Made by a program: the position numbers and the translations under genes. Below, one piece after another: positions 600 to 63,725 of a stretch of DNA of 64,000 nucleotides (the first letter of the stretch is position 1; the number at the start of each line of letters is the position of its first letter). The DNA is from Chiloscyllium plagiosum (Eukaryota), in contig NC_057718.1 in NCBI RefSeq assembly GCF_004010195.1, forward strand, positions 44,423,341-44,487,340. Direction: 5' to 3'. The notes under the pieces are model-generated. The model was not told where the DNA came from, did no database searches, and was given only the letters and a program-made list of their open reading frames with translations.

Positions 600-785
600 A
601 ACTTAACAGCAATTTAGTTTTGTTCAATATATTGTTTCAGTTGCATGACACTGTAATCTTTTGCTATAAATTCTGTGTCTAATGAAGGAGCAGCGCTGTC
701 TGAAAGCTAGTACTTTCAAATAAACCTGTTGGACTATAACCTGGCATTGTGTGATTTTTTTAAAACTTTGTCCACCTCAGTCCAA
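600..785 (+). mobile_element. Penelope 3' tail fragment with degenerate hammerhead
   Basis: Homologous to 31730-31915 (ttgctataaattctgtgtct...gaaggagcagcgct..gaaagctag...ggactataacc). Confidence 0.78.
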
Positions 786-955
786 CCCCCTCTGCCCGTC
801 AATCTGTCCTTACGATAACACGTGTATCCTTGAATATTCATTTCCCAGGCCCTGTCCACTTGAAGCCACGTCTCAGTTATCCCCACAATATCGTATCTGC
901 CAATTTCCAAAAGAGCCTCAAGCTCATCCATCTTATGTCTAATGCTTCATGCATT
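785..955 (-). mobile_element. CR1 ORF2 endonuclease N-terminus (inverted fragment)
   Basis: NA*SIRHKMDELEALLEIGRYDIVGITETWL...YRKDRLTGRGG. Confidence 0.85.
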
Positions 956-956
956 C

Positions 957-1855
957 ATGTTTGCTGATGATATGAAGTTAGGTGGACAGGCAGGTAGTTC
1001 TGAGGAGGTGGGGAGGCTGCAGAAATATTTAGACAGTTTAGGAGGGTGTTCCAGGAAAGGGCTGATGAAATTCAACATGAGCAAATGTGAGATCTTGCAC
1101 TTTGAAAAAAAAGAGTACAGGCATAGATTATTTTTCTGAACGGTGAGAAAATTCACAAAGCCAAAAGTACAAAGGGATCTGGGAGTATCAGTCCAGGATT
1201 CTCTAAAGGTTAACTTGCAGGTTGAGTCCGTCATTAAGAAAGCGAATATAATGATGTCATTTATCTCAAGAGGGCTGGAATATAAAAGCAGCGATGTGCT
1301 TCTGAGACTTTATAAAGCTCTAGTTAGGCCCAATTTAGAATACTGTGTTCAATTTTGGACCCCACACCTCAGCAAAGACATACTGGCACTGGAACGTGTC
1401 CAGCGGAGATTCACACAGATGATCCTTGGAACGACTGAGGATCCTGGGATTGTATTCATTAGATTTTAGAAGGTTGAGGGGAGATCAAATAGAAACTTAC
1501 AAGATAATGTATAGCTTAGGAAGGGTGGATTCTGGGAAGTTGTTTCCATTAGGTGGGAGACGAGGACCCGTGGGCACAGCCTTAGAATTAGAGGGAGTCA
1601 ATTTAGAATGGAATTGAGGAGACATTTCCTCAGCCAGAGAGTGGTGGTCTGTGGAATTCATTGCCATGGAGAGCAGTGGAGGCCGGGACATTAAATGTCT
1701 TAAAGGCAGATAAATTCTTGATCTCGCAAGGAATTAAGGGATAAGGGGAGAGTGTGAATAAGTAGAGTTGAAATGTCCATCAGCTGCGATTAAATAGCAG
1801 AGTGGACTTGATCGACTGAATGGCTTTACTTCCACTCCTAAGTCTTTTGGTCTTA
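957..1855 (+). mobile_element. CR1/HER1 LINE RT C-terminus and 3' end
   Basis: FADDMKLGG, QRDLGV, LYKALVRPNLEYCVQFW; 3' tail. Confidence 0.92.
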
Positions 1856-1856
1856 C

Positions 1857-14366: not shown

Positions 14367-14795
14367 TGGCAAAGTGGCTCAGTGACTAGCACTGATACCT
14401 CACAGCACCAGTGACCCGGGTTCAATTCACCCTCGGACAACGGTCTACGTGGAGTTTGCACATTCTGCCCATGTCTGCGTGGGTCTGCTCCAATTTCCTC
14501 TCACACAGCACAGTTGTGCATGGTAGGCAGATTGGCCATGCAAAATTGTCCAGAGTGTTTTGGGACGTGCAAGCTAGGTAGATTAGCCTTGATAAATGTT
14601 GCAGGGATAGGGTAGGGAACTGAAGCTGGGTGGAATGCTGTGGTGTAAAATTATGTCCCTTGTCCAGAGTGTTTTGGGACGTGCAAGCTAGGTAGATTAG
14701 CCTTGATAAATGTTGCAGGGATAGGGTAGGGAACTGAAGCTGGGTGGAATACCCTTTGGAGTATTGGTGTGGATTTTGATGAGCCGTTGTTTTGT
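14367..14795 (+). mobile_element. HE1-type V-SINE with internal 91-bp duplication
   Basis: tRNA-like head (gtggctcagtg...gggttcaattc), V-core gtggagtttgcacattct. Confidence 0.85.
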
Positions 14796-17959: not shown

Positions 17960-18080
17960 AGCAAATTTCTGCAGATCCTAGAATCTGTACGGAGCTCTGA
18001 CGAAGTTATCTAGACTTGAAACCTTAGCTTGCTGTCCCTCCATGGATGCTGTCTGAGCCATTGTGCTTTCCAGCATTTGC
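17960..18080 (+). mobile_element. Older PLE-type short element with degenerate hammerhead (17993-18029)
   Basis: AGCU-CUGACGA-AGUU-aucua-GACU-U-GAA-ACCU-U-AGCU followed by a ggatgctg...tttccagca tail. Confidence 0.6.
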
Positions 18081-27431: not shown

Positions 27432-30215
27432 CTATAGGATGGAAGACATACATATTTCAGTAACAATGAAAGGCATGTATTTTAAACATTTCATGTGACA
27501 CTGATTGCTCATGCTAGCAAATCTACTGCACATACCATATTGTCATCATAAAAGCAAGGCGTTGCTTTAGCTTAAAAGCTCTGGAAGATATCGTGGTTCC
27601 CTCGAAGATAAACAGCAACAAGAATCAAACTTACAAAAAAAGTCACTCCTGTTTGACAGATAGGTGACTCCAACACTTGCTTCTTCATTAGCCATTGAAG
27701 AAGCAAAGACATACGTGCTTCCACTTTGAGCACAATCAGCAATCCAGACACAACATGCACCAAAGATTTCCGGTTTAGAGAAGCTTTTTCTTTTTTCTGG
27801 TTTCCAGACAAACCCATTTCTTTGGGTAGCCCCAAATGCAGACTCTGCCATAGCTCACCACAATCAGGCTGTGTTGAAAACGTAGGGCAGAATCTCACAG
27901 CTCCCCACTTCCACCCCCCAGACAAACCAGCAAGTTCACACATGGTGCTGCCAATATAACTCCCTGACAAAACTGCCTGATCTCTCACCCCTGTCCTGTC
28001 CACAATTTTACAGATGTGGGGTGCCTGGTGACTTCAATTTGAGGCTGAAGGGAGGAGTTCATAGGTTGGGTGGTGGGAAACTCAGCAGGTCACACTGCTC
28101 AAATTTGTGCAAGAAGCGGAAAATGCCTACCTCAACAGTTCCCTTTCCACATCAAGTACCCCCTCAATTACTATTGATCTACCTTTCCTCAGCGTCTCCA
28201 TCAAGAACACCCACACACACCTTGCTCCCCACCCAGAACTTACTAGTTTCTTAGGTCTAGGACTTAAACTTAGTGTTTATCTGTGGTCCCAGGCCCATAC
28301 CCTGTTGCAGTTACAGCTGCTGAAACTACAGTGCTGTACAGCAGGAAGGCCAGCAGCTCTTGAAGATGGGACTTCTGCCCCACCATCTGAATACCTTACC
28401 CGTAATGTTTTTGAAAATAAATTGTTCTATACATGTCAAAAAGTTTGAAGTGGCAACTTGCTACAGTTTCATTGCAACTAAAATGTGATCATCACACACA
28501 AAAAAAAGCATTTTTAATCAGTTATTTCAGTGTTCCTAATTTTTAATTAAGGAAAATTAGTTTAGAAAATGATATTGGGGCAGTTTAGTCAGTTTTAATT
28601 TGAAATAAAATTCAAAAACTTTTTAAATATGTTTTAGTGGTGTCCTTGCAACCAAAAAGAAGCAATTAAACTTTTAAAACCTTCTTGAAAGCTTGGAAAT
28701 CAATGCAATAGCAGATCTTAGACATGCTTCTATTGTGATGTGTTCTGAACTAACAACAGTGCAAACAAAACTCATTTGCAATTTAGGTAGTTTATGCTTT
28801 AAATTTCACAAAGTTTTGCAAGTTATGTCAACCTCAATTGAGTCGCATCAAACGCTACAAATGTGATGTTTTGTAAGATAATTATGTTCTCAACTGTCTC
28901 TTAATTCAATCTATAATGAAGCATGCAACCTCCTAATAGCTCAGGTTGGTGGTAAGCTGATGTGACTTTAGTCCCATTGGACTAGCCCAGGTTAAGTTCA
29001 CTTGAAGCCCAAGTGCCAGATTTAAAACTTGAACATGGAGACAGAAGCAGTTGGGCTTTTCTCTGCATACTTACAGATTCAAGAGCCCCGGATACAGAGA
29101 TGCATATCCAAGCAAACAAGAAAGCAGTTGCTGTTGTTGTCATCAACAGGGATAAAGAACGCTCACCAGATTGACAGAAGTAATTTTCAACAGACTCTGG
29201 ATCCTGAGGCTCAGCAAAACCACTGGTTCCTTTAAAGACTACAAGACTACTGCTAGTGCAGTGTATTGTATAAATGCGGGATTACTGTTCATATTCAGAA
29301 ACTAATTAAGGAACATCTGCTTTGCAGCTTAGAGTATTTGTTGCCAAATAACTAATGTTTAGTTCATGTTGATTTTAGTTTGTTTATAGCAGCAGAAAGA
29401 GCACAACTTGAAATTCTGATATAGAATTGCTTTAAATTAATCTCTTGGAATTCAAAGCTACATCAAAGAAGTCAGTCAATCTCTCTATGACTGCAGCACA
29501 GAAAAACTGTAGTGAAGTAGGAACTCTAAAGAACTTCTATTTATGTTTCTACTTACAGGTGACTGAATAGATACTTGATCAACAAGGGAATTAAAGAGTT
29601 TGGAGGTGGGCAGGAAAGTATCATAATGATAGGATGGGACATCCTGGTATATGGGCAATCAGGCAATGGGACCCTGTGTGAGAACCTCTCTGGCTAAATT
29701 GAAATAATCTTGAAACCCATTGTAGAGGGGATCCCTAACTTCTGTCGCGACACTTGCAGATTTCTTACAGAAACTCAGCACCCATGGACCAAATGGAAAC
29801 ATCCCTCGTCACAATGGATGTTTCAGCACTCTACACCAGCATCCCCCACAATGACGGCATCGCGGCAACAGCCTCAGTACTCAACACCAACAACTGCCAA
29901 TCTCCAAACACCGTCCTACAACTCATCCGCTTTATCCTCGATCACAACATCTTCACCTTTGACAATCAGTTGTTCATCCAGACACATGAAACAGCCATGG
30001 GGACCAAACTTGGATCCCAATATGCCAACATTTTCACGCACAGGTTCGAACAAGACTTCTTCTTGACGCAGGACCTCCAACCAACCTTATACACTAGGTA
30101 TATTGACGACATTTTGTTCCTCTGGACCCATGGCGAGGAGTCACTGATAAAACTACACAGTGATATCAACAAGTTTCATCCCACCAAACTCACCACGGAC
30201 TACTCTCTACTATCT

Positions 30216-30470
30216 TTAGGACAGAGGTGAAGAGAAACTTCTTCACCCAGACAGTGGTGGCTGTGTGGAATGCTCTGCCCCAGAGGGCAGTGGAGGCCCA
30301 GTCTCTGGATTCATTTAAGAAAGAGTTGGATAGAGCTCTCAAGGATAGTGGAATCAAGAGTTATGGAGATAAGGCAGGAACAGGATATTGATTAAGGATG
30401 ATCAGCCATGATCATATTGAATGGTGATGCAGGCTCGAAGGGCAGAATGGCCTACTCCTGAACCAATTGT
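30216..30470 (+). mobile_element. CR1/HER1-type LINE 3' end nested in the Penelope RT
   Basis: CR1 C-terminus (NFFTQTVVAVWNALP) and 3'UTR; flanked by ctatct at 30210-30215 and 30471-30476; removing it restores DYSLLSVSFLDT. Confidence 0.88.
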
Positions 30471-31831
30471 CTATCTGTCTCGTTCTTGGACACATGCATC
30501 TCCATCAAGGATGGACACCTCAGCACCACAGTCTACAACAAACCCACAGACAACCTCACAATGCTACACTTCGCCAGCTTCCACCCAAAACATATTAAAA
30601 CAGCCATCCCCTATGGACAAGCCCTACGCATACACCTGATCTGTTCAGATGAGGAGGAACGCGATGGGCACTTGGAAGTACTCAAGGATGTCCTCATAAG
30701 AACGGGGTACGACGCTCAACTCATCAACCACCAGTTCAGACGTGCCACAGCGAGGAATCGTAATGACCTCATCAGGAGACAGACATGAGCTGCAACCAAC
30801 AGGGTACTCTTCATTGTCCAGTATTTCCCAAGAGCCGAAAAACTATGCCATGTTCTTCGCGGCCTGCAACACATGATCAATGAGGATGAGCACCTCACCA
30901 AGACCTTCCCCACATTCCCACTGCTTGGCTTTAAACAACCACCAAACCTCAAACAGATCATTGTTCGTAGCAAACTGCCCAGCTTTTACGACAACTCCAT
31001 ACAACCCTGTCATGGTAAGCTCTGCAAGATGTGTCAGAGTGTGGCCATAAATACAACCATTACGCATGGGGACACCTCCCACCATGTACATGGTAGGTAC
31101 TCATGCGACTCAGCCAATGTTGTCTATCTCATACACTGCAGGCACGAATGCCCTGAGACATGGTACATTGGTGAAACCGAGCAAAGGCTATGCCAACGGA
31201 TGAATGGGCACCGCACAACAATCAACAGACAGGAGCGTTCCCTCACAGCTGGAGAACATTTCAGCTGTCCAGGATATTCGACCTCGGACCTTCGGGTGAC
31301 CATCCTTCAAGGTGGACTTCGGGACAGGCAGCAGCGAAAAGTGGCTGAGCAGAGGCTGATAGCTAAGTTCGGTACCCATAGGGAGGGCCTCAACCGGGAT
31401 CTTGGGTTCACGTCACATTACAGGTGACCACCATTGCACTATACACCACACACACACATACATTTGTGGGGTGAATTGGTACTTGCAGAGTTACATTGTA
31501 CTTTGCTCAAAAACTGCATGAATTCATGCAAGATTCTGTTAACTCACTTTTTAGATTAGAATCAGTCTAAACATTATGGCACAGACAACAGCACACAGGG
31601 AGTGAACACCTTCAATATATTGTCTGAGCTGACACCAATTGTTAAAGTTGACCTGATAATGTGTTGACCTGAGTTTTGTGATTTACATATGAAAGTGAAA
31701 CTATCATGGTTATTCTAACAGATGAGAAACTTAACAAACAATCAAGGTATTTTTCAATGTAAAATTTCAGTTACACCACACAGTAAACTTTTGCTATAAA
31801 TTCTGTGTCTTACAATTGTGTCCTCCACAAC

Positions 31832-31866
31832 CACCTGATGAAGGAGCGGCGCTCCGAAAGCTAGTG
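31832..31866 (+). ncRNA. Minimal type I hammerhead ribozyme motif in Penelope 3' tail
   Basis: CAC-CUGAUGA-A-GGAGC-ggc-GCUCC-GAA-AGCU-A-GUG: helix I CAC/GUG, helix II 5 bp, palindromic AGCU helix III. Confidence 0.75.
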
Positions 31867-31919
31867 CTTCCAATTAAACCTACTGGACTATAACCAGGTG
31901 TTGTGAGATTTTTAAAATC

Positions 31920-33143: not shown

Positions 33144-33291
33144 GTTAAAAATCACAACATGAAATTATAGTCCAACAGGTTTATTTGGAAGCACTAGCTT
33201 CCAAATAAACCTTTTGGTCCCTAACCTGGTGTTGCGATTTTTAAAAAAAAACTTTGTCCACCCCAGTCCAACACCTGCTCCTCCATATCAA
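33144..33291. mobile_element. Palindromic Penelope-tail element lacking the hammerhead core
   Basis: aggtttatttggaagc/gcttccaaataaacct fold-back; TSD-like acgattcaa/acaattcaa. Confidence 0.75.
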
Positions 33292-42804: not shown

Positions 42805-42844
42805 TATTTTGTGAAAGTGTGGACTGCATATCATTGTCAAAGAG

Positions 42845-43650
42845 TGCTGCTGAAAAAGCACATATGGTCAGGCAGCATCTGAGGAGCAGGAGAGTCAACG
42901 TTTTGGACATAAGCTCTTCATCAGGAATGAGGCTTGTGGGCCAAGGGGGCTGAGAGATAATGGGAGGTGGGTGGGGGTGGGGCGTGAAAGTGAGAGGTTG
43001 GAGAGGAGGGTGGAGCAGATAGATGGAAAGGAAAATGGACAGGTAGGACAGTTCAAGAGAGCAGTACCAAGTTGGGAATTTGGGACTGGGATAAGGTGGG
43101 GGAGGTGAAAATGGGGAAACTGGTGAAATCCACATCGATCCCATGTGGTTGGAGGGTCCCAAGGTGGAAGATGAGGTATGCTTTCTCCAGGCTTCAAGTG
43201 GTTAGGGTTTGGCAATGGAGGAGGCCCAGGACCTGTACGTCCTTGGTGCAGTAGGAAGGGGAGTTAAAGTATTCAGCTACAGGGCAATGGGGTTGGTTGG
43301 TGCGGGTATCCTAGAGATGTTCTCTAAACAATCTGTAAGTCGGCATCCTGTTTCCCCAATGGAAACGAGACCACATCAGGTGTAACGGATGCAGAAGAGG
43401 ACATTCGATGAAGCACAGGTGAATTTCTGTTGGAAATGGAAGGATCCTTTGGGGCCTTGGACAGAGGTGAGAGTGGAAGTGAGCACAGGTTCTGCACTTC
43501 TTGCCATTGCAGGGGAAGATGGGTTGGTGGGAGGGCGTGGACCTGACAAGGGAGTTGTGGAGTGAATGGCCTCTCCAAAACACAGATAGGGGTGGGGAGA
43601 GAAATATATCTCTGGTGGGGGGGTCTGTTTGTAGGTGGCAGAAATGGTGC
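42845..43650 (-). mobile_element. Second Penelope-like element 3' fragment (GIY-YIG region, 3'UTR, mutated hammerhead)
   Basis: QGPKGSFHFQQKFTCASSNVLFCIR followed by a CGLVSIGETG-like motif; hammerhead-like tail at 42893-42928 (CUGAUGA...AAAACGUU, G12 mutated). Confidence 0.85.
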
Positions 43651-44339
43651 AATAATATTCTTTAAAGTTCAATATCAACAAATTGCATACTTGCAGTCAG
43701 AGTCCATAAAACACTCTAATATATTGGTAAAGCAGCATCATGAGCATTGTAGTGAAAGTGAGAATGGACAGAAAGAACGTTGAATAACCTGGCTGTATAA
43801 ATATACAAAATTAACTTAGGCAAATACAAATTATAGAACTAGTCTAACTATACTTTGGCTTCAGAGTAGCTCCATTGACTGTACTTTGGTGTCAGTAGGA
43901 TATCCTACTGTTAAGTGCAAAGCCACATCATTTCTTTTTCAGCCAGAAATGACAAATAACTAACAGTGTCACTCGGGTATTTCTTTTTTCAAATCAACAT
44001 GTTCAGGCGTGCTGTGGCGCACCTTTGGAGTAGGTGGGATTTGAAACCAGGCCTCCTGGCTCAACAATATTATTCAGAAATAGCAGGTACTAAACCTTAG
44101 AGTAGAAATTACGATTTAATACTTACAATTTAATGAACAGAATCTCTACAATGTTCTGGAATGATTTGGTAGATGCACAAGTCTCTGGGACACAAGGGGT
44201 TAGGAACCAAACCATAGTTTAGTTTGGCAAGTGGGAAAAAAGATAATTCTTGGCTATCACCAACAGCAGACTGAAGAGACATCCACATTCGAGCTTACAG
44301 GTTGTAATCTCCCAAATGTAAGTGAAACCGAATGGAAGA

Positions 44340-46023: not shown

Positions 46024-47409
46024 AAAATATCTTTTGATATGACCATTAATTTGCTGGATAACATGACAAGTTTTAGTTTCAACTCATTGCCGCTATCGTT
46101 CCAGAGAGCTACACTTTCATGAATCCATTAACTCTTTCGAGATAAAAGGAGTGTTAAGTGCATGGAACAAGCAAGGACAAACCAACATTTGGTGATCCAA
46201 ATTAAAAATGTATCAGGGTAAAAAACTGTGTGGTGAGGCAAAATAGCCAGAAATATTCAACAATGTGCGGAGAAAAATCAAATATTAATTAAAACTACAA
46301 TGTTACTCCTGAAGTATAGATGAGGAAAAAGGTCATGGATGAATGCGAACTGTCCTAATATAATTGAAGTCAAGGCTGTTGCACTTGACTCTGCTCAAAA
46401 GACAGGTAGTTTAGGAATGCTGAGCTAGCCAAGTGCTCTGCTAGACCAGCTGTGGGAACAATTCAAACATCTCAATATTCCCAAACCTGGGAGGATTATT
46501 TGTAAATTTCTGAGAAAAGCATAATGGGAGGTAGTGAGAGAACAAAAAAGCAGACTCAAAGGTTTGAGGAAATACAAAATAAATTACAGTATGCTGTTCA
46601 TCCCAATATTATGTTCTGCATTTAGGTTAACAATTGCTGTACAGCAGAGGTGATGCAAGTGGCATTCTTAACCACATGTACCTCTTCATTGGTAATGACA
46701 CAAAATGGTGTGTGTTATGAATGGCAGTTCTTACATAACTGGGACTACAGTGGTTCAAGAAGGTGGCTCATCACCACCAAGATAATTAAAAACGGGCAAT
46801 AAATGTTAACAAGACTCTGCCATTCTTTGAAAAAAAACTGAGAAAAATATATACTACATTGGGAACCAATCTCAGATTCATAGTTTTTTTTTCCTCATTC
46901 TCATTATGAATAAACAAGAAATGTACAATTTACATTATAGCATCAAACTTGTTTTTATGCTGACAAGTCTGTATCATAGCCTCAGATTATTTAATAAACT
47001 TAAAAATAAATATTCACACTAATAGCCAATATTTCACATTGAAAAATAAAGATCTGTTTGCACTGGCAAATGGTAAGCCTTAAAGTCTTAAAATATGTTC
47101 TGTATAGGAAATAAAAGCATAAACAAAAACTGAGACTTGTGGGACTTCACATGTCGGATAGCCACATCTGCTCTGTTAATCATAGGTGTTGATGCTAAGG
47201 TTTATATTTTCACAATGAAAGCAAAACAACTTTGAAAAGGTGCTTGAGATTTTCATAACAGGAACAGATACAGGGAAGTAACAAAATGCTGCACTACAAT
47301 TATTTGAAAAAAAATACTAAGTCCAGCAAAGCTTCTGGACTACCCAAATCCAGACCAAAATAAAACAAAAAGCAAAGACATGTTCAATCATAAAATATAC
47401 CCAACTTAT

Positions 47410-47740
47410 TTTTATTCATCCATGGGATGAGGAGGATGGCTACACCAGCATTTATTGCCCATCCCTAATTTCCCAGAGGTTAATGAAGAGTCAACCACAT
47501 TATTGTAGATCTGGAGTCACATACAGGCCAGGTAAGTGTAGCAGTTTTCTTCCCTAAAAGGGAATTAGTGAACAAGATTTTTTTTTTCTGACAATAGACA
47601 TGGTCACCATTAGACTTTTAATTCCAGAGATTTGATATGGAATTTACATTCCACCATCTGCCGTGGCAAGATTCAAACTCAGGTCCCCAGAATATTACCT
47701 GGGTTTCTGGATTAACAATCCAGTGATTATACCACTTGGC
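47410..47740 (-). mobile_element. tRNA-headed SINE sharing its 3' tail with the Zenon/Crack-like LINE
   Basis: Head agtggtataatcactgga...gagtttgaatc; tail gggcaataaatg also seen at about 46790 (+). Confidence 0.65.
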
Positions 47741-50700: not shown

Positions 50701-52898
50701 ATTGTTGTCTGAAAAGGCTCAGATTTATCAGCCATACCAGTACTGGTGAAAGAAAGCTCAACTAAACCAGCCATATAAATGTCACGACTTTAAAATCAAG
50801 GATAGTGTCAACAGATGAGTACTATACAGCAAGTGACTCAACTTCTAACTCCCTAAAATATAGCCTTAACACCACCTAAAGACACAAGTCAGAACGGAGA
50901 TGGAATTCTCTCCAACCACTTGGATGAACGCAGCTACAGCCACATGCAAGAAGCTCGATACTAGTAAGGTCAAAGCACCCCATCTAGCATCTTGAACATT
51001 CACTCTCTCTGACACCAATGTTGCAGTGCATTTCATTTTTACAAGCACTGCATCATCCCATTCAGACTCTTTTAACAAGATTCGCCAACCCCTACAAACA
51101 CAGATATCAATGTAAACAAGGAGCAAATGGGCCATTAGGCCCCTAAAGCCTACATTATGGCTGATCAGCACGTAATCTCAAATTTACATTCCTGCCTATC
51201 CAATATAACCTTTCAATCCTTGCTTACCAAGCATCTAACCATCTTTATCTTAAACATATTCAAGGACTTTGCTTCCATCATCTTTTCAGTAAAAGGATTC
51301 CTAAAACTTATGTTTTAAATGGGCACACATTGATTTTTAAAAAGTGACCCCTAGTTCTAGCTTCTCTTACAAGAAGAAACATTCTGTCCATCTTTACACT
51401 GTCAAGACTCCTCAGGATTTTATGTTTTAACCAGGTCACCTCTTACTCTTCTAAACTCCAGTAGATAAAAGCCTAGCTTATCCAACATTTCTTCACAAGA
51501 TAACCTGCCCATTCTTGGCATTTAGTCTACTAACTATGTCTGAACTGCCTCCAAAGTATTTACATCCTTCCTGAAATGTGACCAATACTAAGGAGTACTC
51601 CATATGCAACCCCACTAGTGCCCTGTATAATTGACCCAAAATTTCTTGATCAATGTATCCAATTCCTATTGCTAAATAATAGGATTCTATTAGCTTTCCT
51701 AATTATTCCTTGTAGTGCATAGTCAACTTTTGTGATTCAATTAGTAGGACAGCCAGATTCGTCTGCATATCAGTTCTGCACTCTCTCACCAATAACAACA
51801 TGCATTTTTAAAATTCTTCAGCCAGAATGGACGATTTTACATTTTCCCACTTAGCACTCTATTTGTCAGATCTTTGTCCACTCTATAACTAACTTTTTGG
51901 GGCCTCATCTTCTTTACAACTTACTTTCGCATCTGTCTGTTTCATCTGCAAATTTGGCAATTATACTTTGTCACTTCAGTCCAAGTAATTTATGTAAATT
52001 GCAATCAGGTAATATTCCAGCACTAAGCACTGTAGCACACCACTCGTTATATCTTGCCAAACTGAAAAAGACCTATTTGTGCTCCCTCTTCACTTCCTGT
52101 TGGCCAACCAATTTTCTATCAATGCCAACATGCTATCCCCTATACTGGCCCTTTACATTTTGACAATAATCTTTGATGTGGCATTATTCTAAATGCCTTC
52201 TGAAAATCTAAGTACTGTACATTAACCAATCCCGCTTTTACACATAACTGATTAAACACCACTTTCCCTTCACCAAGCCATGTTGACATTATGTGATTAA
52301 ACTGCACTTATCCAAGCACCCTGTTCTAACATTTTTCATAATATCTTCTCACATTTTCCCTCCAGCTGATAGTAAACTAACAGACCTACATTTTTCTGTT
52401 TCCTTCCCTTTTTGAAGAAAGAAGCCACATTCAAAATCTTTCAATCTAATGAGACATTTCCCAAATTGATGAATCTTTGGAAATCCAACCAATGTATCAA
52501 GAATTTTACTTGCCACGTTTTTTTTGAAAAGAGATTGTAGAGTGAAATCCATCATCACAACCTGGGCACTGGTCAGGCTACAGCTCCAAACATTTACTCA
52601 ACACCACTTCTTTAGTGTTTGGAAATTTACTGTGCTCCTGCTTCCCTTTTCCTGGTGTTTGGCTGCTCTGAGTTGTTGTATTCTCTCTAGTGAAGACTGA
52701 TGCAAAACACCTGTTCAGCTCATCTTCAATTTCCGTATTTTCCAATATTAATTCTCCAGACTCACTTTCTACAGGACCTACAGTTAACTTTGTTAACACT
52801 TGTTAAAATATTTACAGAAACTTTTACTATCTCATTTTATAATCTGGTTAGCTTTCTCTTGTATTTAATTTATCCCTTTATTGCTATTAACTGCAGAT

Positions 52899-53064
52899 TA
52901 GACAAGCTGGGGAGCTGGAAGAATACGGCAAGCCAGACAGCATCAGGAGGTGGAGAAGTAGATGTTTCGGGTATAACCCTTCTTCAGGAATTCCTGGCTT
53001 GTTGTGTTCTTCCAGCCCCCTGCTTGTCTACTTTGGATTCCAGTATCTGCAGTTTTTCTGTCAT
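52899..53064. mobile_element. Short palindromic PLE-derived element (hammerhead-like motif on - at about 52957-52990)
   Basis: CUGAAGA-A-GGGU-uau-ACCC-GAA-ACAU-C on minus strand; TSD-like ttaactgcagat (52887-52898) and ttaaatgcagat (53065-53076). Confidence 0.75.
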
Positions 53065-53153
53065 TTAAATGCAGATGGTGAGCCCATTTCTGGGAAATGT
53101 CCTTACTCTTTGGAAAATATGTGTTTTTTGAAATATCTCCTTGAATTTTTGCT

Positions 53154-53472
53154 GGAGCAGCATGGTGGCATTGTTGCCTCAGCACCAGGAACCCTGGTTC
53201 AATTCCAGCCTCGGGCAACTGTGGGGAGAGCATTCTCCCAGTGTCTGTGAGTGTCCTCCCATAGTCCAAAGATGTTCAGGTTAGGTGGATTGGCCATGCT
53301 AAATTGCCCACAATGTCCAGTTGAGCAGGCTAGTTGGATTAGCCACAGGAAATTATAGGGTTACACGGATAGGGTAGGGGAGAGGGTTTTAGTGGGATAC
53401 TCTTGAGAAGATTGGCGTGAACTCAATGGACTGAATGGCCTGCTTCCACACTACACGGCAGCTACGATTCTA
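53154..53472 (+). mobile_element. HE1-type V-SINE
   Basis: ggaaccctggttcaattcc, gccatgctaaattgccc, CR1-like tail. Confidence 0.85.
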
Positions 53473-54233
53473 GTACATTTCTATTAACATTTCCTTAAAA
53501 ACCTAATTTGCCAATTCACTTTAGTTAGCTTTGCATTTGTGCCCTCATAATTGCTTATATTTAAGTTTCATGAAAATCAGACTATTCCTTTCTTTGAAAT
53601 TAAGTCACATTATGATTACTGTTCCCCCAAGGCACCTTCACTATGAGATCATAAACTAATCCTATCTCATTGTGTAATATCCTGGTGCTCTAACCTCTTT
53701 CTTCAAACAGCATGTTCTGCAGCTAATCTCAGAAACATCCTATGAACTCATCTAGGCTACCTTTGTCCATCTGATTTTTCCAACATACATGTACATTAAA
53801 ATCTCTAATGATTATGGCCATATTTTTCTGACAAGCTCCAATTGTTTCTTTCTTTACGTTCCTCTTTACTGTGTTGTTATTGTTAAGGGGCTCCCTCCAA
53901 TTCCACTCCTTTTGCTTTACCATTTCTCATGTCTGCTCAAAACATTTCCACACCCTGCTCTGCTGAACTTCCATTACCCCTCTCTAACAACCTCTATCAC
54001 CTAAAAAGACAAGGCCACCAGCATACATGCCATGTACAAGTTACCTTCTTTAAGATACCATGTGTACAGCTGTGCCAAAAACAAAAGTCACAATTAAATG
54101 AATAGTTTACACACAAAAAAAGGGTTACAAAGGATTTGAAATCTACCACTACAAAGCCATACACCGTTCTGACTTGTAAAGTATTCTTGGTACAAGAGTA
54201 GGGACCTGGAACTCATAACCTAATAGCACTTGA

Positions 54234-54534
54234 AGATTAGATTAGATTCCTTACAGCGTGGAAACAGGCCTTTTAGGCCAACAGGTCCACACCGACCCTC
54301 AGAAGAGTAACCCACCCAAATACTTTTTCCCCTCTGACTAATGCACCTAACTGACAACTTAAGCATGGCCAATTCACCAAACCTGCACATCTTTGGACTG
54401 TGGGAGGAAACTGGAGCACCCAGAGGAAACCCACGCAAACACAGGGTGGTTGTGCAAACTCCACACAGTCACCTGAGGTTGGAATCAAACCTGGGTCCCT
54501 GGTGCTGTGAGGCACTGAGCTACCATGTCGCCCC
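54234..54534 (-). mobile_element. HE1-type V-SINE
   Basis: Same architecture as the other copies. Confidence 0.88.
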
Positions 54535-55560: not shown

Positions 55561-57272
55561 CCTGTCCCTGTCCATCTGGTTCCACATACCACACCACATT
55601 TCAAATTCGTTTAGACATGTCACAATCACGTTATTTATATTCACTTTGGCCATGATTGAAAGGCAGAGCAGATTCAATGGGTCGAATTGCCTAATTTCTG
55701 CTCCTATGTCTTAAGGTCTTATGGCCATCGGAGTGGAGTCAGGTTGTGAAGATGTACCGAGAGCTGAATCAGAATGCATTCTGTGGCTTTGGATGATGTC
55801 CGCAATTATCAAGCTTTCCTCAGTTTTGGTATTTCGAAGAACAGTCATACTGAACTCAAAATATTAATTTAGTTTCTCCCTTCACAAATGTGGCCAGACC
55901 TGCAGAATTACATCAGCACTTTCCGTTTTTATTTCAGAACTCCAGCATCTGAAAGTGTTTTACTTTTATTTTGATCTTTATATATTGCCTTTTCATATAA
56001 GACAACCTTGCTGTAAAAAAAGTTGGCATTGTTTTTGTTCGTGTGCCAACTCATGAAGTGTCAATGTCCTGCAATTGTGGGGCATTGTCAAGATGAAAAT
56101 TAAGCATAGTATTTCCTTCTTCAAACAAAGTCACATCTCTTTCTCATGAATCCTTTGTAGAATTTGTTTTCAAATCTGCCTATTCAGACCAACAAGGTAG
56201 GAATATTACCACAGGTCAGAAGAGCTCTTGAGTTGTTGGTTGAATGCTGCACAACTCAATGAAGAAGTTGCAGCAACAGAAGTCCAGGACTTTTAAAAGT
56301 TTTGGGTAGTGAATCCTGATAACAACATTAATAGTGTAACTTTCTGCTTATTTATGTGTAATATACAATTTAAATAAAAGCAAGATAAATCAATGAAAAA
56401 GTAGCTCTGAATGTTTTACTGAATGGAAATTACTGAATGGTTACAATACTGAAACACTAAAAAATGGTAATTTAAAAGAGTTGTTTGTTGTTCACCTGCC
56501 TCAGAATGTTAAGTGAAAAAAGAAAGACCTTGCTTTCATATGGTGCATCTTACAAACCCAGGATGCCACAAACTAGATCATAGCAAACTGCTTTTGAAGT
56601 ATATTCATGAGTGTAATGAAGGGAGATTTGCACACAGAAAGATTCCAAAAACAGCAATGTGCTGTTCATAGAGGTTTACTGCATTGAAAAAGTCCCTTGA
56701 ATCATTGAGACTACATCAGTCAAAAATAGGCACTTATATAACTTATCTATTCTAATGCAAATTTCAGCACTTGGTCCATAACCTTTTATGCCATTGCATG
56801 TACACATCTAATTCCTTGTTCAAATTATAAGAGCTTCTGCCTCTTCCATCCTTACAAGCAGTGAATCCCACTCTCCCACCATCCTCTGGATAAATTTTGT
56901 TTTTCCCAGCTACCCCATGTATTAAATCTATGCCTTTGGTCATCGATCTCTCCATCACGAAGAAAAGTTCCTTCCTGACTATCCTATCTAAGTCCTGCAT
57001 AACTTTAACCATCTCAATCATGTTTCCCTCAGTCTTCTCTGTTCCATGGAAAACAACCCTAGTATATCTAATTTCTCATCATGATTTAACTCTCCAGCCC
57101 AGGCAACAATCTGGTAGACCTCCTCAACTCCCTCTCTAGTGCAATCACATCCCTCCTAAAATATACGACAGAATACTCAAGCCATAACCTGACAAATGTT
57201 TTATACAGTTCAGTATAGCCTGCCCACTATTAAACTGTATACCTCAGCTAATAAAGACAAGTATTCCTATAT

Positions 57273-57313
57273 TCTCGACTCTGATCTCCAGCATCTGCAG
57301 TCCTCACTTTCTC
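57273..57313 (+). mobile_element. 41-bp PLE-tail micro-insertion
   Basis: ctctgatctccagcatctgcagtcctcactttctc, the same terminus as the 58625 element; TSD caagtattcctatat at 57258-57272 and 57314-57328. Confidence 0.8.
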
Positions 57314-58086
57314 CAAGTATTCCTATATGCTTTCTTAACCATTTTATTTATCTGTTGGTACCTTAAGAGACAGGTGGGCTTGCACATCAAGGTTTCTCTA
57401 ATCCTTGGTGATTTTCAGGGTACAAATATTTATTATGTATTCCCTTGTCATGTTTGTCTTGCCCAGGTGTATCACCTCACACTTATCCAGATCGAATTTC
57501 ATTTGTCACTAATCAGCTTATCTGATCAATCTATATGCTCCTATAATTTAAAGTTATCTCTCACCATTTACCACCTGAATAATTTCTACATCATCCATGA
57601 ACTTACTGATCACAACTTAACATTCAAGTCTAAATCATTTATATATACCACAAACAACAAGGAGGCCAACTCTGAATCCCACAGAACCTGACTGGACATT
57701 GGCTTTCAGTGACAAAAACACCCTTCAAACATCGCTTCTTGACACTTAACCAATTCTGAATCCTATTAGTCAAATTTCCTGGGATCCCAGTGATCTTACC
57801 TTCACTATCAGTCTCCCAGCTGGACCTTATTGAAAGCCTTGCTGAAGTCCACATGGACCGCATTGTATGTATTGCCCTCATCTACGTACCTGGTCAACTC
57901 CTCAAAAAATTCAACCAAGTTGATTAGTCATTAACTTCCCTTAACAAAATCATTCAACTGTTCTTGACCAGTCCTTGCATCTCTAAGTACAGATTAATTC
58001 TGTCCCACAGAATTGCTTCCAATAGTTTCCCTGCTACCAACTGGCTTATAGTTTCCTGGTTTATCCCTTGCTTTTTTCTTGAATAG

Positions 58087-58259
58087 GAGAAATTGAGTAC
58101 TGCAGATGCTGGAGATCAGAGTCATGACTGTGTTGCTGGAAAAGCACAGCAGGTCAGGCAACATCATGATGAAGGGCTAATGCCCGAAACATCGATTCTC
58201 CTGCTCCTCGGATGCTGCCTGACCTGCTGTGCTTTTCCAGCATCACACTCTCGACTCTC
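58087..58259. mobile_element. Short palindromic PLE-derived element (degenerate hammerhead on +)
   Basis: TSD ttcttgaatag at 58076-58086 and 58260-58270; inverted gctggaaaagcacagcaggtcaggca arms; atgatgaagggctaatgcccgaaacatc. Confidence 0.85.
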
Positions 58260-58624
58260 TTCTTGAATAGCAGTGCCACATTACCTATCAACCAGTCCTC
58301 TGGCACCTCTCCTGTGGCTACAAAGGAATTGGAAATTATTTCTAGAACCCTTGTTATGTTCTTCCTTGCCTGACACTACAGCCTGGGATACATTTCATCT
58401 ACTTGTAAGTTGGTCAGACCACTCAGAATCTCCTGTCTGTCTACGCTAATTTATTTAATTACATCACGGCACTTCTCCCTAATTTCTACACCCACATCAT
58501 TCCTCTCACAAGTGAACATTGACACAAAGTATTTGTTTAGAACCCTACCTACATCCTCTGGCTCCATGCAAAAATTGCCACTATGGCCCTTAATGGGCCC
58601 TTTTCTTTCCCTAGTTATCATTTT

Positions 58625-58862
58625 TGAAACTTTATTGCTGGAATAGCACAGCAGGTCAGGCAGCATCCAGGGAACAGGAGATTCGACGTTTCGGGCACAG
58701 GCCCTTCTTCAGGAATGAGCAGAGAGTGTTCAGCAGGAGAAGATAAAAGGTAGGGAGGAGGGACTGGGAGGAGGGGCGTTGGAGGATGCTGCCTGACCTG
58801 CTGTGCTGTTCCAGCAATAAAGTTTCAACTTTGATCTCCAGCATCTGCAGACCTCACTTTCT
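58625..58862. mobile_element. Short palindromic PLE-derived element with hammerhead
   Basis: Inverted arms about 58624-58668 and 58784-58828; TSD cctagttatcatttt at 58610-58624 and 58863-58877; inserted in CR1. Confidence 0.85.
58681..58716 (-). ncRNA. Minimal type I hammerhead ribozyme motif, apparently intact
   Basis: AUUC-CUGAAGA-A-GGGC-cugu-GCCC-GAA-ACGU-C-GAAU: helix I 4 bp, helix II 4 bp, palindromic ACGU, GUC cleavage triplet. Confidence 0.8.
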
Positions 58863-59459
58863 CCTAGTTATCATTTTACCTTTCATGCACTTCTAAATTA
58901 ACTTAGGATTTTCCTTTATTTTGGCTGCCATTATTGTTTCATGCACCCCCCATTTTGCTCTCCTAATTTCTTTTTCAAGTTCCCCTTTATATATTCTGTA
59001 TTCCTCTAGGGCTTCTTCTTGAATCCTCGGCATCTTCCATAAGCTTCCCTCCTTTTCTTCATCCAATCTTGTATATCCCTTAATATCCAGGGTTCATTGG
59101 ATTTATTGGTCCCATCATTTACCTTTATTGGAACATATTGATTGTGTACTTTCCTTATTTCATTCTTGAAAGCATCCCACTGCTCTGACACAGATTTACC
59201 TTGAAGTATCTGTTCCCAATTCACTTTGTCTAAATCATATCTGATTTTATTAAAACCAGCCTTCCCTCAGTTTAGAACTTTGATTTCAGGCTTGACCTTG
59301 TCTTTTCCATAACAATCTCGAATCTAATGCGTTATCATCACTGTCTGCAAAATGCTGCCCTACTGATACTGCAACCACTTGCCTGACTTCATTACCTAAA
59401 ATTAAGTCCAGGACCATGCCCTCTTCATTTGGAGATAATGACGAGATGATGTAACAGTA

Positions 59460-59670
59460 ATGGAAGAAATCCCATATCCCTCTTAAAAAATGGAATCTAT
59501 TCCTCTACCTGAGAGGCCTTAGCTTAATTTTCAATCTGAAGGACAGCACCTCTGAGTGCAGCAATCACACAGTACTAAATTTAACTGTCAATCTGGAGGT
59601 TATGCTCAAATCTCAAAATGAAATTGGAAGACACAATCTTCAGACTTTCAGGCAAGTGTTATCACTGAGA
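59460..59670 (-). mobile_element. Old DeuSINE-like (SacSINE/AmnSINE-like) fragment; related pieces at about 24990-25230 and 56520-56660
   Basis: tctgaaggacagcacctctga..gcagca..cagtact Deu-core-like sequence; family assignment tentative. Confidence 0.5.
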
Positions 59671-60965
59671 AACAACCGATCAACCTCAAGAGTCCTGGTA
59701 ATACAAATTAAAAAAAAACATTTATTGGTCTTGTTGTTAAACGGGGAGTTCCAAGATTTCAACTAGAGACATAGAAGGAATGTAAGTAGTAATGTTCCCA
59801 TGTGTTTGCTGCTTTTGTCCTTTGAGGTCGTAACAGTCATGGATTTGGAAAGTGCTGCATGGGAAGCTTTGGTGAATTTCTGCAGTGAATCTTGTAGCTG
59901 GTACACAATGCTGCCACTGAGGATCTGTAGTGGAGGCAGTGAATGTTTATGGATTTAATACTCCAATCAAATGGGCTACTTTGTTCTGGATGGCATCAAG
60001 TTTCTTGAGTGTTGAAATTGGACTCATCCAGGAAAGTGAGGAGTATTCCCGTCACACTCCTGACTTGTGGATAGTGGATGGTTGACAGGCATTTGGGAGT
60101 CAAGAGGCAAGTTATTTGTTGCAGGTTACCTCACCTCTGACCTGCTGTTATATACACAACACTTATATGACTAAAATAGTTCAGTTTCTAATCACTGGTA
60201 ATCCACAAAATATTAATAGTTGAGGATTTAGTGATAGTAATGCCATTGCACATCAAGGGGCAATGATTAGATTCTTTCTTGTTGGAGATGGTCATTGGCT
60301 GGCACTTGTGTGACACAATACCACTTGCCATAATCCCTTGGTGACAAGCTAACTATCTAGCTCTTGCTTTTCTCTTCCCTTGCTAATGATTTGACCTGTT
60401 AGTTCAATGTCTATAATCATTTAAAAACATCAGCAACTGAAATTCATGTAGCTCTTTTAATTGGAATTTTGTCCGAATCTTTTCAACTGTTCAAAATAAT
60501 TCCTTGGCTCTCATTCAGAACCGTTGGTCATACTTTGTTTTTCGTGTGTTGCCTTCCAGACTATTAGCAATACTCTACAGCTATATGTTATGTTCATGGA
60601 TGAAGTGTTCTTGGCTGGAAAATCACCACTTTTGTTTTCAAGAAATCATCTCCCTCAGAAATAATTAATTCCTAAAACAATTCAAAGCGTGATTTTAATA
60701 CTACCTTCATAGTAGTCCCATTACTTTTCAGCAGACTTCACAGAAATCTTGAGACTGATGTGTCGTGAGCTTTGTGCTTATTATACTTGCATATTCTTGA
60801 CATTGTTTCTGCTACAAATACATCTGGTATCAAGCCAGTTAAATGTGCATAAGATGCTCTTGACATGTACCTCAATGAGTGTGAACTTTTTTGAACTGTC
60901 TATCTACTTTGCAAAATCAATATCATCTCTCTGTTTTTACATGGCATTCTGCATTGTTGCATTAT

Positions 60966-61180
60966 TGTCCAGAGTGTGGTGCTGGAAAAACACAGCAGGT
61001 CAGGTAGCATCTGAGGAGCATGAGAATAGACTTTTCAGGCAAAAGCCCTTCATTCAGGAATGAATGGCTTTTGCCCGAAATGTCAATTCTCCTGCTCCTC
61101 GGATTCTGCCTCACTGGCTGTGCTTTTCCAACACCACACTCGCGACCCTGATCTCCAGCATCTGCAGTTCTCGGTTCCTC
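60966..61180. mobile_element. Short palindromic PLE-derived element with two back-to-back degenerate hammerheads
   Basis: Long inverted arms; TSD-like cattgttgcattat (60952-60965) and cattattgcattat (61181-61194). Confidence 0.82.
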
Positions 61181-62391
61181 CATTATTGCATTATAACCCA
61201 TGCAATTGGCTCAAGCAATCAAATAACAAGATATTAGACAGATTAGTGATAAACATTCAGTGTACTGATGTTGGGTTCAGGACAATTGAAACAACAACTT
61301 TATTTTGCCAGTGTATTAAGCACAAATGGAATTTGCTTACAATTTTGTAGTTCATTCATCTCATGAAAATATGTTGCAATAATATGGATTGCCATCTCCA
61401 TCTAGCTGCCTGATCATTAGTATGAATAAACAAGTTTATGGTCTTGGACAAATGATTTTTTGTTTGTTTTCTGTCACCTGTAACCTTCTGTAAAGTAATG
61501 CATCCTAAAAAGAAGCTACAAAAACAATGAGCTTCTTTGCTAAGCTGAACTGTATTTCATTCTGACCTGAAACAACTGCACATTTGCTTCACCATGTCAA
61601 TTTTTTACTGTACTGAAGTGATTGTAGCAGCATATGATTCATTATATAACTTTTTCCTTTTCACATTTTGGTCGTTTAATAAGGCAAGCAAGGTAATGTT
61701 TTCCCAGAGGGCTGCTCTCCTATTAGCAAAAGATGATTTAACCTGAGGGGGACCACACCTCAGGTGGGGTGAAGAAGAAGAATCATTCACAGTAACCTCA
61801 GCCCGTGAAGGAGTTGAACCCACACTGTAGGTGCCACTTTATAGTTCAAACCAACCATCCAGTTAACTAAGCTAAAAGCCCCCGACTCACAAGGCAGGCA
61901 ACATTTGCTAGCAATCCCATTTTCTGGCTGCCTCCAAATAATGTAAAACAGCAATACAGAAGAGATGACAAGTCATAAAGAGTCACAAGATCATTTGTGA
62001 TATAGAAGCAAGCCATTCAGCTCATTAAATTTGCATTGTCTCCCTGCAGAGCAATCCAATTAGTTCCAATCCCCCATGATCCCTGTGGGCCTCTGAAAGA
62101 GTAAGAAAGAAATAAAGAAAATAGGGCAAAGAAAATCTTTAAATTAAACTTTCACAAAGTAGTAAAGTGTTTGACAGACACATAAATAACAAAATAAAAG
62201 TCAGTTTAGAATAAAGCAGCTGCTTTGCTTTCCTGCAGATATACTCCTCTGTATCTTTCCCACTAGTGGGTGGCTGTTGTATACATCCAGTAGTTTTGAT
62301 AAATGTCTATGAAATGTTATTATTTGATTAGAAACTTGGGTTCTAAAGTGGAAAGAACCATCTTATAGCCCTTTTTGTATTGTATTTAAAC

Positions 62392-62608
62392 TCAGAAGTC
62401 ACACAACACCAAGTTATAGTCAAACAGGTTTATTTGAAAGGACAAGCTTTTGGAGCTTTACTTCTTTGTTCGGTGATGTGAATCCCCTGATGAAGGAGCA
62501 GCGCTCCAAATGCTTGTCCTTTCAAATAAACCTGTTGGACTATAACCAGGTGTTATGTGACTTCTGACTTTGTCCACCCCAGACCATCACCAGCACCTCC
62601 ACATCAGG
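62392..62608. mobile_element. Palindromic element derived from the tail of the 29635-31915 Penelope family
   Basis: Inverted arms about 62392-62447 and 62512-62567; cctgatgaaggagcagcgctccaaat (core G12 mutated); shares ggactataacc tail. Confidence 0.82.
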
Positions 62609-63725
62609 ATTGCATTTAGATATTGTTAATCTTAAGATGGGGAAGATGTAGGCCTTGTCAGTAAGCTTTTTGGAGGGTTTCTTACTGAATTGTATATTGA
62701 GATTTCTTGCCATAGTTTACCAAACTCAGCTCATTAACTACAGACCCCATCTCTGTGGTGCCCTTCCCAGTTATTTCTAGTTTTATCTTATCATGCACAG
62801 TTCTTCAAACAACTTGCCATTCACTGGATATGTGTCAAAAGACCAACAACATTAGTGCTTACACCATCTTGGAAAGGCCACTGCACCCAGAAACACTTTA
62901 GTAATCTGGCATTGCCTCACCAACAACCGAATGGCACAGCAACCACAAAGCCATGATGTTCACAGCACAAAGCCGTCATGGCTGACACTCCAACACATAT
63001 ACAACCCCATTCTCTCATTCTAGTTACTGTTTAACTATCACTCCACACAGTCTAGAAATCCTTAGTTGTATTTTACCTTTCTATGTCATCTTTACTGTTT
63101 CTCCAATGCCTCCTGCAAACCTGCATCTTATCATTGCCAGTAGGGGACATCACACATACAGGCAAGCAATCTGACAGCTATAAACATGAAATTTTATTTA
63201 AGTCACCAAGCAAACACATACAACATGAGTAGAGGTTGAAGTTTGCCCGCAAAATGCAAACCAAATGCTCGCATGATGATCATTGGCAATTCTATATTCC
63301 ATGAAAGTCTACTGCATCCAGTTCCCATCTACTGGAACCAGATATCAATCAGATCCTGTGTGGCTTGTTGAACTCAACACAGTTGAGTTTTGTCATGGAT
63401 CAGGAGAGGTTCCTCCTCCACAATGGCCTCCTCCTTAGAAAACTGCTTGCACTCCCCAATTCCTCAGCATCTATCCTACCATTTTGTCACCTGCTGCAAT
63501 TGTGCAAAGCACAGCATGACAGGATGGTGTATGTCCAGATGGTCCTGGATTGACCCCTACTGACTAATCCAACCAGTGGAACTACATTCTCAATATTCCT
63601 ACTGTCTGCTCCACCACAGCCCTGATCGAAATTTTAGCCATATTCTATCTGCCTAACTGGCTATCCTTTTCCAGCCCCAAACCCTTCAACTCTGATCTCC
63701 AGCATCTGATGTCCTCACTTTCTCC

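Follow-up and report, generated by a model that had tools for sequence, protein, structure and literature searches.

Short palindromic insertions of Penelope-like element ends in Chiloscyllium plagiosum mostly follow a known layout

A stretch of 64,000 nucleotides from the shark Chiloscyllium plagiosum (NC_057718.1, positions 44,423,341 to 44,487,340; hereafter the window) holds eleven stretches related to Penelope-like elements (PLEs): the 3' ends of two larger elements and nine short copies. A preliminary description read them as two PLE lineages that had each spawned ribozyme-centred, non-autonomous palindromes. The question raised by this locus is whether the short copies are such mobile elements or the truncated products of ordinary PLE insertion. 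Our analysis indicates that they are mostly ordinary, in a layout previously described for PLEs, and we are highly confident that they are truncated PLE insertions. The features are summarized in Table 1.

Table 1. PLE-related features of the window. Signed numbers are distances in nucleotides from the predicted hammerhead cut; the last column gives target site duplications (TSDs), with matching letters in brackets.
Feature	Position	Strand	Structure	TSD
PLE A	29640..31915	+	5'-truncated, broken, putatively Neptune/Nematis-type PLE: RT, thumb, CX4CxxC linker, GIY-YIG EN, 3' pLTR; 5' boundary approximate	
Hammerhead, family A, in PLE A	31835..31863	+	complete minimal type I; stem II 5 bp, stem I 3 bp, palindromic AGCU; predicted cut after 31863	
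PLE B	42811..43655	-	EN-only 5'-truncated remnant; decayed hammerhead (core start ~42923); tail with short deletion; boundaries approximate	
Hammerhead, family B, in 58625 palindrome	at 58712	-	complete; in short arm; predicted cut after 58685	
Single arm, family A	599..789	+	-137 to ~+77; decayed tail, broken core	none (p=0.99)
Palindrome 33144, family A	33145..33290		short arm minus 33145-33200 (-6 to +52); tail arm plus 33197-33290 (+3 to +92)	candidate 33132-33143 / 33289-33300 (10/12)
Palindrome 62392, family A	62389..62608		short arm minus to 62480 (-38); tail arm plus 62481-62606 (-35 to +92)	62379-62388 / 62609-62618 (9/10)
Palindrome 52899, family B, diverged subfamily	52899..53064		short arm minus to -32; tail arm plus from +25	52887-52898 / 53065-53076 (11/12)
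Tail-only insertion, family B	57273..57314	+	+56 to +97; no ribozyme	57258-57272 / 57314-57328 (15/15)
Palindrome 58087, family B	58087..58259		tail arm minus 58087-58165 (+18 to +97); short arm plus 58164-58259 (-30 to ~+65)	58076-58086 / 58260-58270 (11/11)
Palindrome 58625, family B, young	58625..58864		short arm minus 58625-58783 (~-99 to +60); tail arm plus 58784-58864 (+17 to +97)	58610-58624 / 58863-58877 (15/15)
Palindrome 60966, family B	60966..61181		short arm minus to 61063 (-34); tail arm plus from ~61060 (-26 to +97)	60949-60965 / 61178-61194 (15/17)
Single tail arm, family B	63649..63725	+	+22 to +97; no ribozyme	63638-63652 / 63724-63738 (14/15)

All eleven stretches are present. 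Self-BLAST sorts them into two families, with pairwise identity of 70-98% and best E-values between 1e-8 and 1e-25. Family A matches the 3' end of PLE A, and family B that of the minus-strand PLE B. The descent from two PLE lineages with a common 3' terminus, as first described, is supported. The coordinates needed correction in two places: the copy reported at 63685-63725 begins at 63649, and the PLE B end reaches about 42811. The copy at 599..789 is preceded by a direct partial duplicate at 572-599. Further, more diverged PLE-like ends outside both families lie at 17997, 20610, 40058 and 55830.

The two larger elements are recognizable as PLEs. PLE A encodes an RT (29739-30227; Pfam RVT_1, E=2.6e-7) followed by a linker and a GIY-YIG EN (30789-31427), the order of EN+ PLEs, although its ORF is broken; another repeat interrupts it at about 30219-30476. 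Atlas features of its EN score 0.97 with GIY-YIG clusters (the family being on 18-27% of members), and the best of its 27 homologues are from sharks, with PF00078/PF26215 and in some cases PF01541. The EN of PLE B consists of three collinear pieces with 32-34% identity to that of PLE A (summed E=3e-4 in 900 nt), scoring singly 19.6-23.5 bits against a maximum of 20.0 among 58 control pieces. Pfam returned nothing significant for the PLE A thumb, the PLE A EN (no GIY-YIG match) or the PLE B pieces, and no solved structure matched the PLE A RT piece. A CX4CxxC linker precedes the EN in both elements, within the CX2-5CxxC definition given in the available part of Craig 2021 (PMC8557442), and this motif would place them as Neptune or Nematis type, either of the two. 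Both are 5'-truncated; neither has a TSD match passing the filter or, on reading of the sequence, an inverted tail arm at its 5' end. PLE A ends at the short end (+52). At about 61-85% identity, both are dead relatives and not the parents.

A strict descriptor of the minimal type I hammerhead finds two motifs in the window (31835+ and 58712-), against 0.013 expected per window from 150 Markov simulations. Both predicted motifs lie in the pLTR, sense to the ORF remnants, and fit the min-HHR description in the part of Cervera 2014 that was available. The label "hammerhead-bearing" is accordingly true of the families but of only two of the eleven copies: those at 57273, 63649 and 33144 do not extend as far as the core, and the remaining incomplete ones have core or stem changes. 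None of the five weak Rfam matches at E<=5 is a hammerhead family; an Rfam match to mir-2831 at 33172 was rejected as a chance hairpin, scoring 28 bits where the gathering score is 90. Pattern scans gave no match in viral contigs and none in metagenome contigs. Folding of six 47-48 nt hammerhead regions gave z-scores of -0.97 to +0.58, so that folding energy gives no support, and the folds show stem II only, plus stem I at 58712. The core is kept across families whose stems differ, and the copy at 52899 carries a compensatory change in stem II, suggesting that the ribozyme was probably functional in the source elements.

The outer ends of the copies occupy two fixed positions, roughly +52 to +66 and +92 to +97 (family A: +52 and +92; family B: +60 to +66 and +97), and never at the predicted cut. 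The two sites are 31-40 nt apart, which is the length of the tail. Genome-wide, DNA sequencing runs of three organisms point to the same places: loose ends whose long flanks are unrelated accumulate at 58864-58869 (540+390 contigs in run X1, 581+419+316 in X10 and 312+751+458+305 in X18) and also close to the short end, with 224-288 contigs before 58636. The preliminary description left the common 3' terminus to either priming or self-cleavage, and the first is supported. That cleavage set the ends, as 3' terminus or as 5' truncation point, is highly improbable. It would agree with the conserved core and stem II compensation and with one arm that starts at +3 to +7, but the outer ends lie 52-97 nt past the cut, none of the 15 inner ends among the window copies is at +1 (the nearest is at +3), and none of the 24 top loose ends, which are followed by 1336 more, is at 58684/58685. 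No pile-up of RNA begins or ends was reported for one polyA single-cell run, 2% of it read, a library type that would miss small or circular RNA; the drop of its read depth over about -3 to -59 (1,034, then 482, then 182) is inseparable from the divergence of subfamilies that lies upstream of stem I. In addition, hammerhead mutants of the anole element PAc insert normally in vitro, according to the accessible part of Frangieh 2024 (PMC11167929). The ends are very likely set by internal starts of RT.

Six of the eleven stretches (33144, 52899, 58087, 58625, 60966 and 62392) are head-to-head palindromes, confirming the fusion of an inverted to a forward copy. In all six, one short and one tailed arm are paired; the tail is present on one arm only, and the other reaches 3-116 nt further 5' (at 62392 the asymmetry is 3 nt only, in decayed sequence). 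Because each arm holds sequence absent from the other, neither is a plain copy of its partner. The non-nested arms favour priming from both target nicks. In the available text of Arkhipova 2013 (PMC3846280), self-priming on an antisense template was proposed; one strand would be made, its end would fold back and the second arm would be copied from the first. Consistent with this are the short perfect palindromes at the junctions of 58087 (10 nt) and 52899 (12 nt), a feature cited in the same paper, and the 98% identity between the arms of the young copy at 58625. A copied arm must however nest in the first, which it does in none of the six palindromes, and an extra template switch back to the RNA would be required, leaving fold-back improbable. 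In three of the six palindromes an arm is most similar to its partner, in favour of the insertion model proposed below; in the other three, another copy resembles an arm as closely as its partner does, or more closely, which counts against that model.

Seven of the nine short copies have significant TSDs of 10-17 bp (all p<=0.018 against 1500 random position pairs), and the candidate at 33144 is borderline (p=0.05), bearing out the TSD-like flanks first reported. Family B TSDs overlap the long end of the element by 1-7 nt. The palindrome at 58625 has an empty site in a related species (organism B), where record 12 of run X10 joins 58513-58609 (record 437-533) directly to 58863-59000 (record 299-436), with 4 and 3 differing letters in its two halves and a single TSD copy left; both arms therefore arrived in one recent event. 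Record 7 of X1 and record 23 of X18 likewise have their first letter at 58863; with one half listed for each, they hint at empty alleles in organisms A and C. The lengths of two skip joints in X18 (285 and 297 nt) differ from the 253 nt of the empty site, and these joints probably derive from paralogues of the flanking repeat.

The central junctions are all different. Their arms overlap by 4 nt at 33144 and 60966 and by 2 exact nt at 58087; clear microhomology is lacking at 52899 and 62392, and at 58625 it was judged from the loose-end consensus only. Palindrome centres are spread from -99 to +25, with no fixed position in the ribozyme, which contradicts the term "ribozyme-centred". A fixed internal structure common to many copies, as a SINE- or MITE-like master would give, was not found: all six junctions differ, and the 15 joints listed (with 254 further) each come from 1-4 contigs per run, so that no fold-back master is evident. 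It is very improbable that palindromic mini-elements were transcribed and mobilised as units. Family B is abundant (30,531-41,434 matching contigs per DNA run, which is not a copy number) and present in polyA RNA (2,873 reads, both strands), non-autonomous retrozymes derived from PLEs exist (bioRxiv 10.64898/2026.07.22.740005, seen in part), and similar junctions recur: 52899, 58087 and one X1 joint connect about -31 with +18/+25. Against these points, the molecules (44 contigs, 152 reads) that reach the 58783/58784 junction continue as linear element, and 96% of the RNA reads continue into unlike sequence, as expected of copies within other transcripts. For 56500-63700, a look-up listed no RNA data set that contains it. 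Nine of the eleven copies have no complete ribozyme. Moreover, a re-copied unit would have a one-sided tail end only by inheriting old flanks, whereas here the TSDs adjoin both arms.

The probable explanation is that the copies are short 5'-truncated insertions of PLE ends, with two fixed outer termini well past the predicted hammerhead cut and palindromes likely built anew at each insertion event. The RT-EN protein would nick both target strands 10-15 bp apart, and each 3'-OH would prime RT within the RNA, with one start at +92 to +97, the tail-end site, and the other at +52 to +66, the short site. Both cDNAs would stop early and then be joined, often via 2-4 nt of microhomology; priming at the tail site alone would give single-arm copies. 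The hammerhead would be carried along by virtue of its place in the pLTR, a short way upstream of these start sites. We infer the sites by analogy with a Poseidon-clade PLE, and priming at both nicks is moderately likely as the cause of the inversion. The constant pairing of one short with one long end and the 1-7 nt overlaps at the family B long end count against this explanation, being unlike the insertions in the available text of Frangieh 2024 (PMC11167929).

A further reading is that a PLE dimer primes both nicks on a single RNA, with RT at the short site ahead of RT at the tail site, 1-7 nt of pairing between target and RNA, and frequent run-off where the RNA has a 5' end shortly upstream of the hammerhead (-26 to -38), giving a strong-stop-like cDNA. 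We consider this doubtful. Six of the 15 inner ends lie at -26 to -38, a clustering that is suggestive only: a uniform null gives p=0.014, length-based nulls give 0.04-0.10, and the arms within an insertion are not independent. A short arm that reaches further is also expected from two RNAs with cDNAs of similar length, and thus does not demonstrate a single RNA. If the dimer reading is true, the integration cycle of PLEs would be preserved at base resolution in shark genomes, through their thousands of young copies and the empty sites found in close relatives.

The element class is not new. The recurrent palindromic architecture noted at first is real, but it matches the published PLE layout of an inverted pLTR with a 30-40 bp tail: the available parts of Craig 2021 (PMC8557442) and Arkhipova 2013 (PMC3846280) describe an inverted 5'-truncated pLTR, a one-sided tail and an 8-10 bp TSD. 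Like canonical EN+ PLE insertions, the shark loci have a head-to-head inverted 5'-truncated copy with a one-end tail (31-40 nt, all six palindromes), short TSDs (seven or eight of nine short copies), a pLTR hammerhead, and RT followed by GIY-YIG EN. They differ in that their arms are cut to 41-229 nt with only the pLTR end left, in TSDs of 10-15 bp compared with 8-10 bp in the rotifer examples, and in a far higher copy number.

For the PAc protein (Poseidon_Ac), Frangieh 2024 (PMC11167929), as far as available, reports nicking and extension of both strands, with internal RT starts at two neighbouring sites, between which the 30-40 bp tail lies. Its main start is at ORF nt 111-118 and its cut at nt 26, which corresponds by subtraction to about +85 to +92 here. 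The two fixed ends around a tail roughly 90 nt past the cut, the AT-rich targets and the absence of a role of cleavage in the ends are shared. PAc, however, belongs to the Poseidon clade, whereas the shark elements have the CX4CxxC linker; no difference in its start site was reported between the strands, and its cut DNA is reported to lack homology to the start site, in contrast to the target overlap of family B. No model for the inverted arm is given in the part of that paper available.

The arms also recall L1 insertions. In L1 twin priming, reportedly described by Ostertag and Kazazian in 2001, two target nicks are said to each prime a cDNA, giving inverted arms, a microhomology joint and a flanking TSD, as here; the L1 cDNAs reportedly cover different stretches of RNA, whereas the shark cDNAs overlap by 35-95 nt and both start from fixed sites. 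Metazoan non-LTR retrozymes, reportedly the subject of work by Cervera and de la Pena in 2020, resemble the copies as well. They are non-coding, pLTR-derived and equipped with a type I hammerhead, and occur as dispersed monomers, but form tandem head-to-tail units, each of which carries a ribozyme (bioRxiv 10.64898/2026.07.22.740005, available part). The shark copies are head-to-head, mostly ribozyme-less and have unique junctions, and no copy has two complete motifs on the same strand, the two in 64 kb belonging to different families.

The literature covered, which leaves out most subscription papers, yielded no paper on shark PLE palindromes or PLE twin priming, and Fig. S2 of Frangieh 2024 may show such copies. 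The copies matter for annotation, where they are open to being mistaken for MITEs, miRNA hairpins or retrozymes. The available parts of Craig 2021 (PMC8557442) and Frangieh 2024 (PMC11167929) leave open the steps that make tandem and inverted structures; the value of the shark copies is that of a dataset, miniature, recent and bounded by TSDs, which allows genome-wide counts of how arms nest, of microhomology at the primer and of the clustering of inner ends.

The evidence comprises the window sequence, four sequencing runs matched to a window segment, and published papers. The short copies are real, abundant and recently active, and they are an instance of an already known insertion pattern of Penelope-like elements (PLEs). 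As the preliminary description held, they form two PLE-related families, A and B, matching the 3' ends of two dead elements, PLE A and PLE B; self-BLAST within the window recovered both families and all 11 cited stretches. The RT piece of PLE A matches RVT_1 (E=2.6e-7), and shark proteins are the best homologues of its endonuclease region in a homologue search, which marks the window as shark-like DNA. With the more diverged ends tabulated below, the number of PLE subfamilies in the window exceeds two. On the minus strand, at ~55108, 41405 and 27428, are three exon-like segments of a host gene with a BTB domain, by name presumably KCTD3/SHKBP1-like, which probably places the copies left of 55,000 in introns. 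Five of the short copies are found upstream of the gene's first exon, at distances of up to ~9 kb.

PLE remnants and other repeats in the window
Feature	Position	Strand	Description
PLE A	~29640-31915	+	RT piece, CX4CxxC linker, GIY-YIG-type EN; disrupted by stop codons and a repeat insertion
PLE B	~43655-42811	minus	EN-only remnant; CX4CxxC linker as in PLE A
Repeat inside PLE A RT region	30219-30476		LINE 3'-like; resembles 1648-1707 and 2164-2223
More diverged family B-related ends	17997-18090 (+), 20560-20615 (-), 40058-40140 (+), 55830-55950 (+)		Hammerhead/pLTR-like
Family A-like fragments	39986-40023, 63808-63849		Weak, short
SINE-like family D1-D7	34603-54514		Separate, abundant
Direct repeat	14546-14750		Perfect, 91 nt, spacing 114 nt

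The fusion of an inverted partial copy to a forward copy, ascribed earlier to many copies, holds for 6/11, which are head-to-head palindromes, whereas five are single-arm. TSDs exceed chance in seven of nine short copies (p<=0.018), with one borderline and one lacking, and measure 10-17 bp. Under a strict descriptor, the hammerheads attributed to the copies reduce to two complete minimal motifs in the window, 31835+ and 58712- (0.013 expected); an Rfam search of the window gave no hammerhead match, and folding energies of the hammerhead regions are unremarkable. The motif agrees with the minimal, probably dimeric hammerheads that passages of Cervera 2014 describe in PLE pLTRs. Directly before copy A600 lies a 28-nt direct duplicate (572-599 vs 699-726; stem II to +15), which has the look of a very short partial tandem or of a template jump; its end does not coincide with the predicted cut.

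Numbered from the predicted hammerhead cut, outer ends cluster at two fixed places, +52 and +92 in family A and +60 to +66 and +97 in family B. Each palindrome has one short-ended arm and one arm longer by 31-40 nt, and this tail is present in 4/5 single-arm copies (600, 57273, 63649, PLE B), copy 57273 being scarcely more than tail. DNA runs of three related organisms (A, B and C), matched to 58440-59000 at 85% likeness, gave 38,074, 30,531 and 41,434 contigs, which are not copy numbers. Loose ends that lead into long, AT-rich and unrelated flanking sequence cluster at 58864-58869 (at least 930 contigs in X1, from organism A) and, among the rows listed, near the short end; none of the 24 rows listed (1336 more are unlisted) ends at the predicted cut, and the table of contig begin/end pile-ups is empty. 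Because the outer ends (+52 to +97) lie past the cut and no listed loose end falls at it, the shared 3' terminus, for which self-cleavage had been one of two suggested causes, is not the cleavage site. Within 58786-58869, a stop-free frame opens at an ATG at +19 and spans the family B tail, which would be expected of a tail that forms the start of the PLE ORF, as in PAc (the anole PLE of Frangieh 2024) and rotifer elements.

Inner ends (short arm/tailed arm) are -6/+3 at 33144, -38/-35 at 62392, -32/+25 at 52899, -30/+18 at 58087, -99/+17 at 58625 and -34/-26 at 60966. All six junctions differ, the 15 joints listed (254 more are unlisted) each occur on 1-4 contigs per run, and molecules reaching the 58783/58784 junction run on into linear element sequence; the view of the copies as ribozyme-centred, non-autonomous elements is thus unsupported. 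A contig from organism B (X10 record 12) runs straight from 58609 to 58863, with ~97% identity on either side, and is an empty site with a single copy of the 15-bp TSD. The 238-bp palindrome at 58625 therefore arrived whole, recently and with its own junction. Differing junctions, rare joints and whole arrival fit palindromes that form anew from ordinary PLE RNA whenever an insertion occurs, though a rare palindrome may be re-mobilised as a unit. Near-identical contigs in X1 and X18 (organism C) begin exactly at the right TSD (58863), a hint that organism A may be polymorphic for the 58625 insertion and that organism C may lack it.

In 6/6 palindromes the tailed arm holds sequence missing from its short partner, which in turn extends 3-116 nt beyond it on the 5' side (a difference of 3 nt being weak evidence). 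Nested arms, unlike these six, are what fold-back copying predicts, also in the form of the antisense self-priming put forward in passages of Arkhipova 2013 (PMC3846280); such copying is not favoured. Two RNA-templated syntheses per palindrome are favoured instead. Each of the two nicks would prime synthesis at a different one of the start sites, both cDNAs would terminate early, and the arms would be joined by microhomology, which measures 4 nt at 33144 and 60966, is 2 exact at 58087, and is not clear at 52899 or 62392. Such both-nick priming is akin to L1 twin priming. According to passages of Frangieh 2024 (PMC11167929), PAc, a predicted dimer, nicks and extends both target strands, but showed no start-site strand preference, which counts against this scheme.

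Two further patterns may bear on priming and templates. In family B, the first letters of the TSD match the element end at five long ends, over 1, 2, 1, 3 and 7 nt against an expected mean of 0.64 (the sum has p=0.0006, or 0.01 when 58625 is omitted); the 58625 locus supplied the sequence past +97, backed by loose-end rows 58865-58869, and the count excludes the diverged 52899 copy, sequence past its end being unavailable for comparison. This overlap could reflect primer pairing or endonuclease preference. Six of 15 inner ends fall at -26 to -38 (p=0.014-0.10 depending on the null), which could mark an RNA 5' end, since the Penelope transcription start lies in the pLTR, or merely local microhomology.

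From 2% of a polyA single-cell RNA run came 2,873 reads, covering both strands, of which 96% continue into unlike sequence, with no start/end pile-up seen in this library, which is uninformative on small or circular RNAs; this pattern fits copies inside host transcripts. At 58863, 176 RNA reads (X21) exit the element end into one common flank (agreement 0.87) with AATAAA, suggesting one well-expressed copy elsewhere in the genome, near a transcript 3' end.

The value of these copies is as a test of the PLE integration mechanism. Passages of Craig 2021 (PMC8557442) describe PLE insertions with a 30-40 bp tail at one end and an inverted 5'-truncated copy, and those of Arkhipova 2013 the same layout with 8-10 bp TSDs. 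In the relevant sections of Frangieh 2024, the tail is explained by reverse transcription starting internally at two sites, chiefly at one ~85-92 nt past the cut, and cleavage is dispensable in vitro. The terminus of the shark copies corresponds to the tail described in these parts of the three papers.
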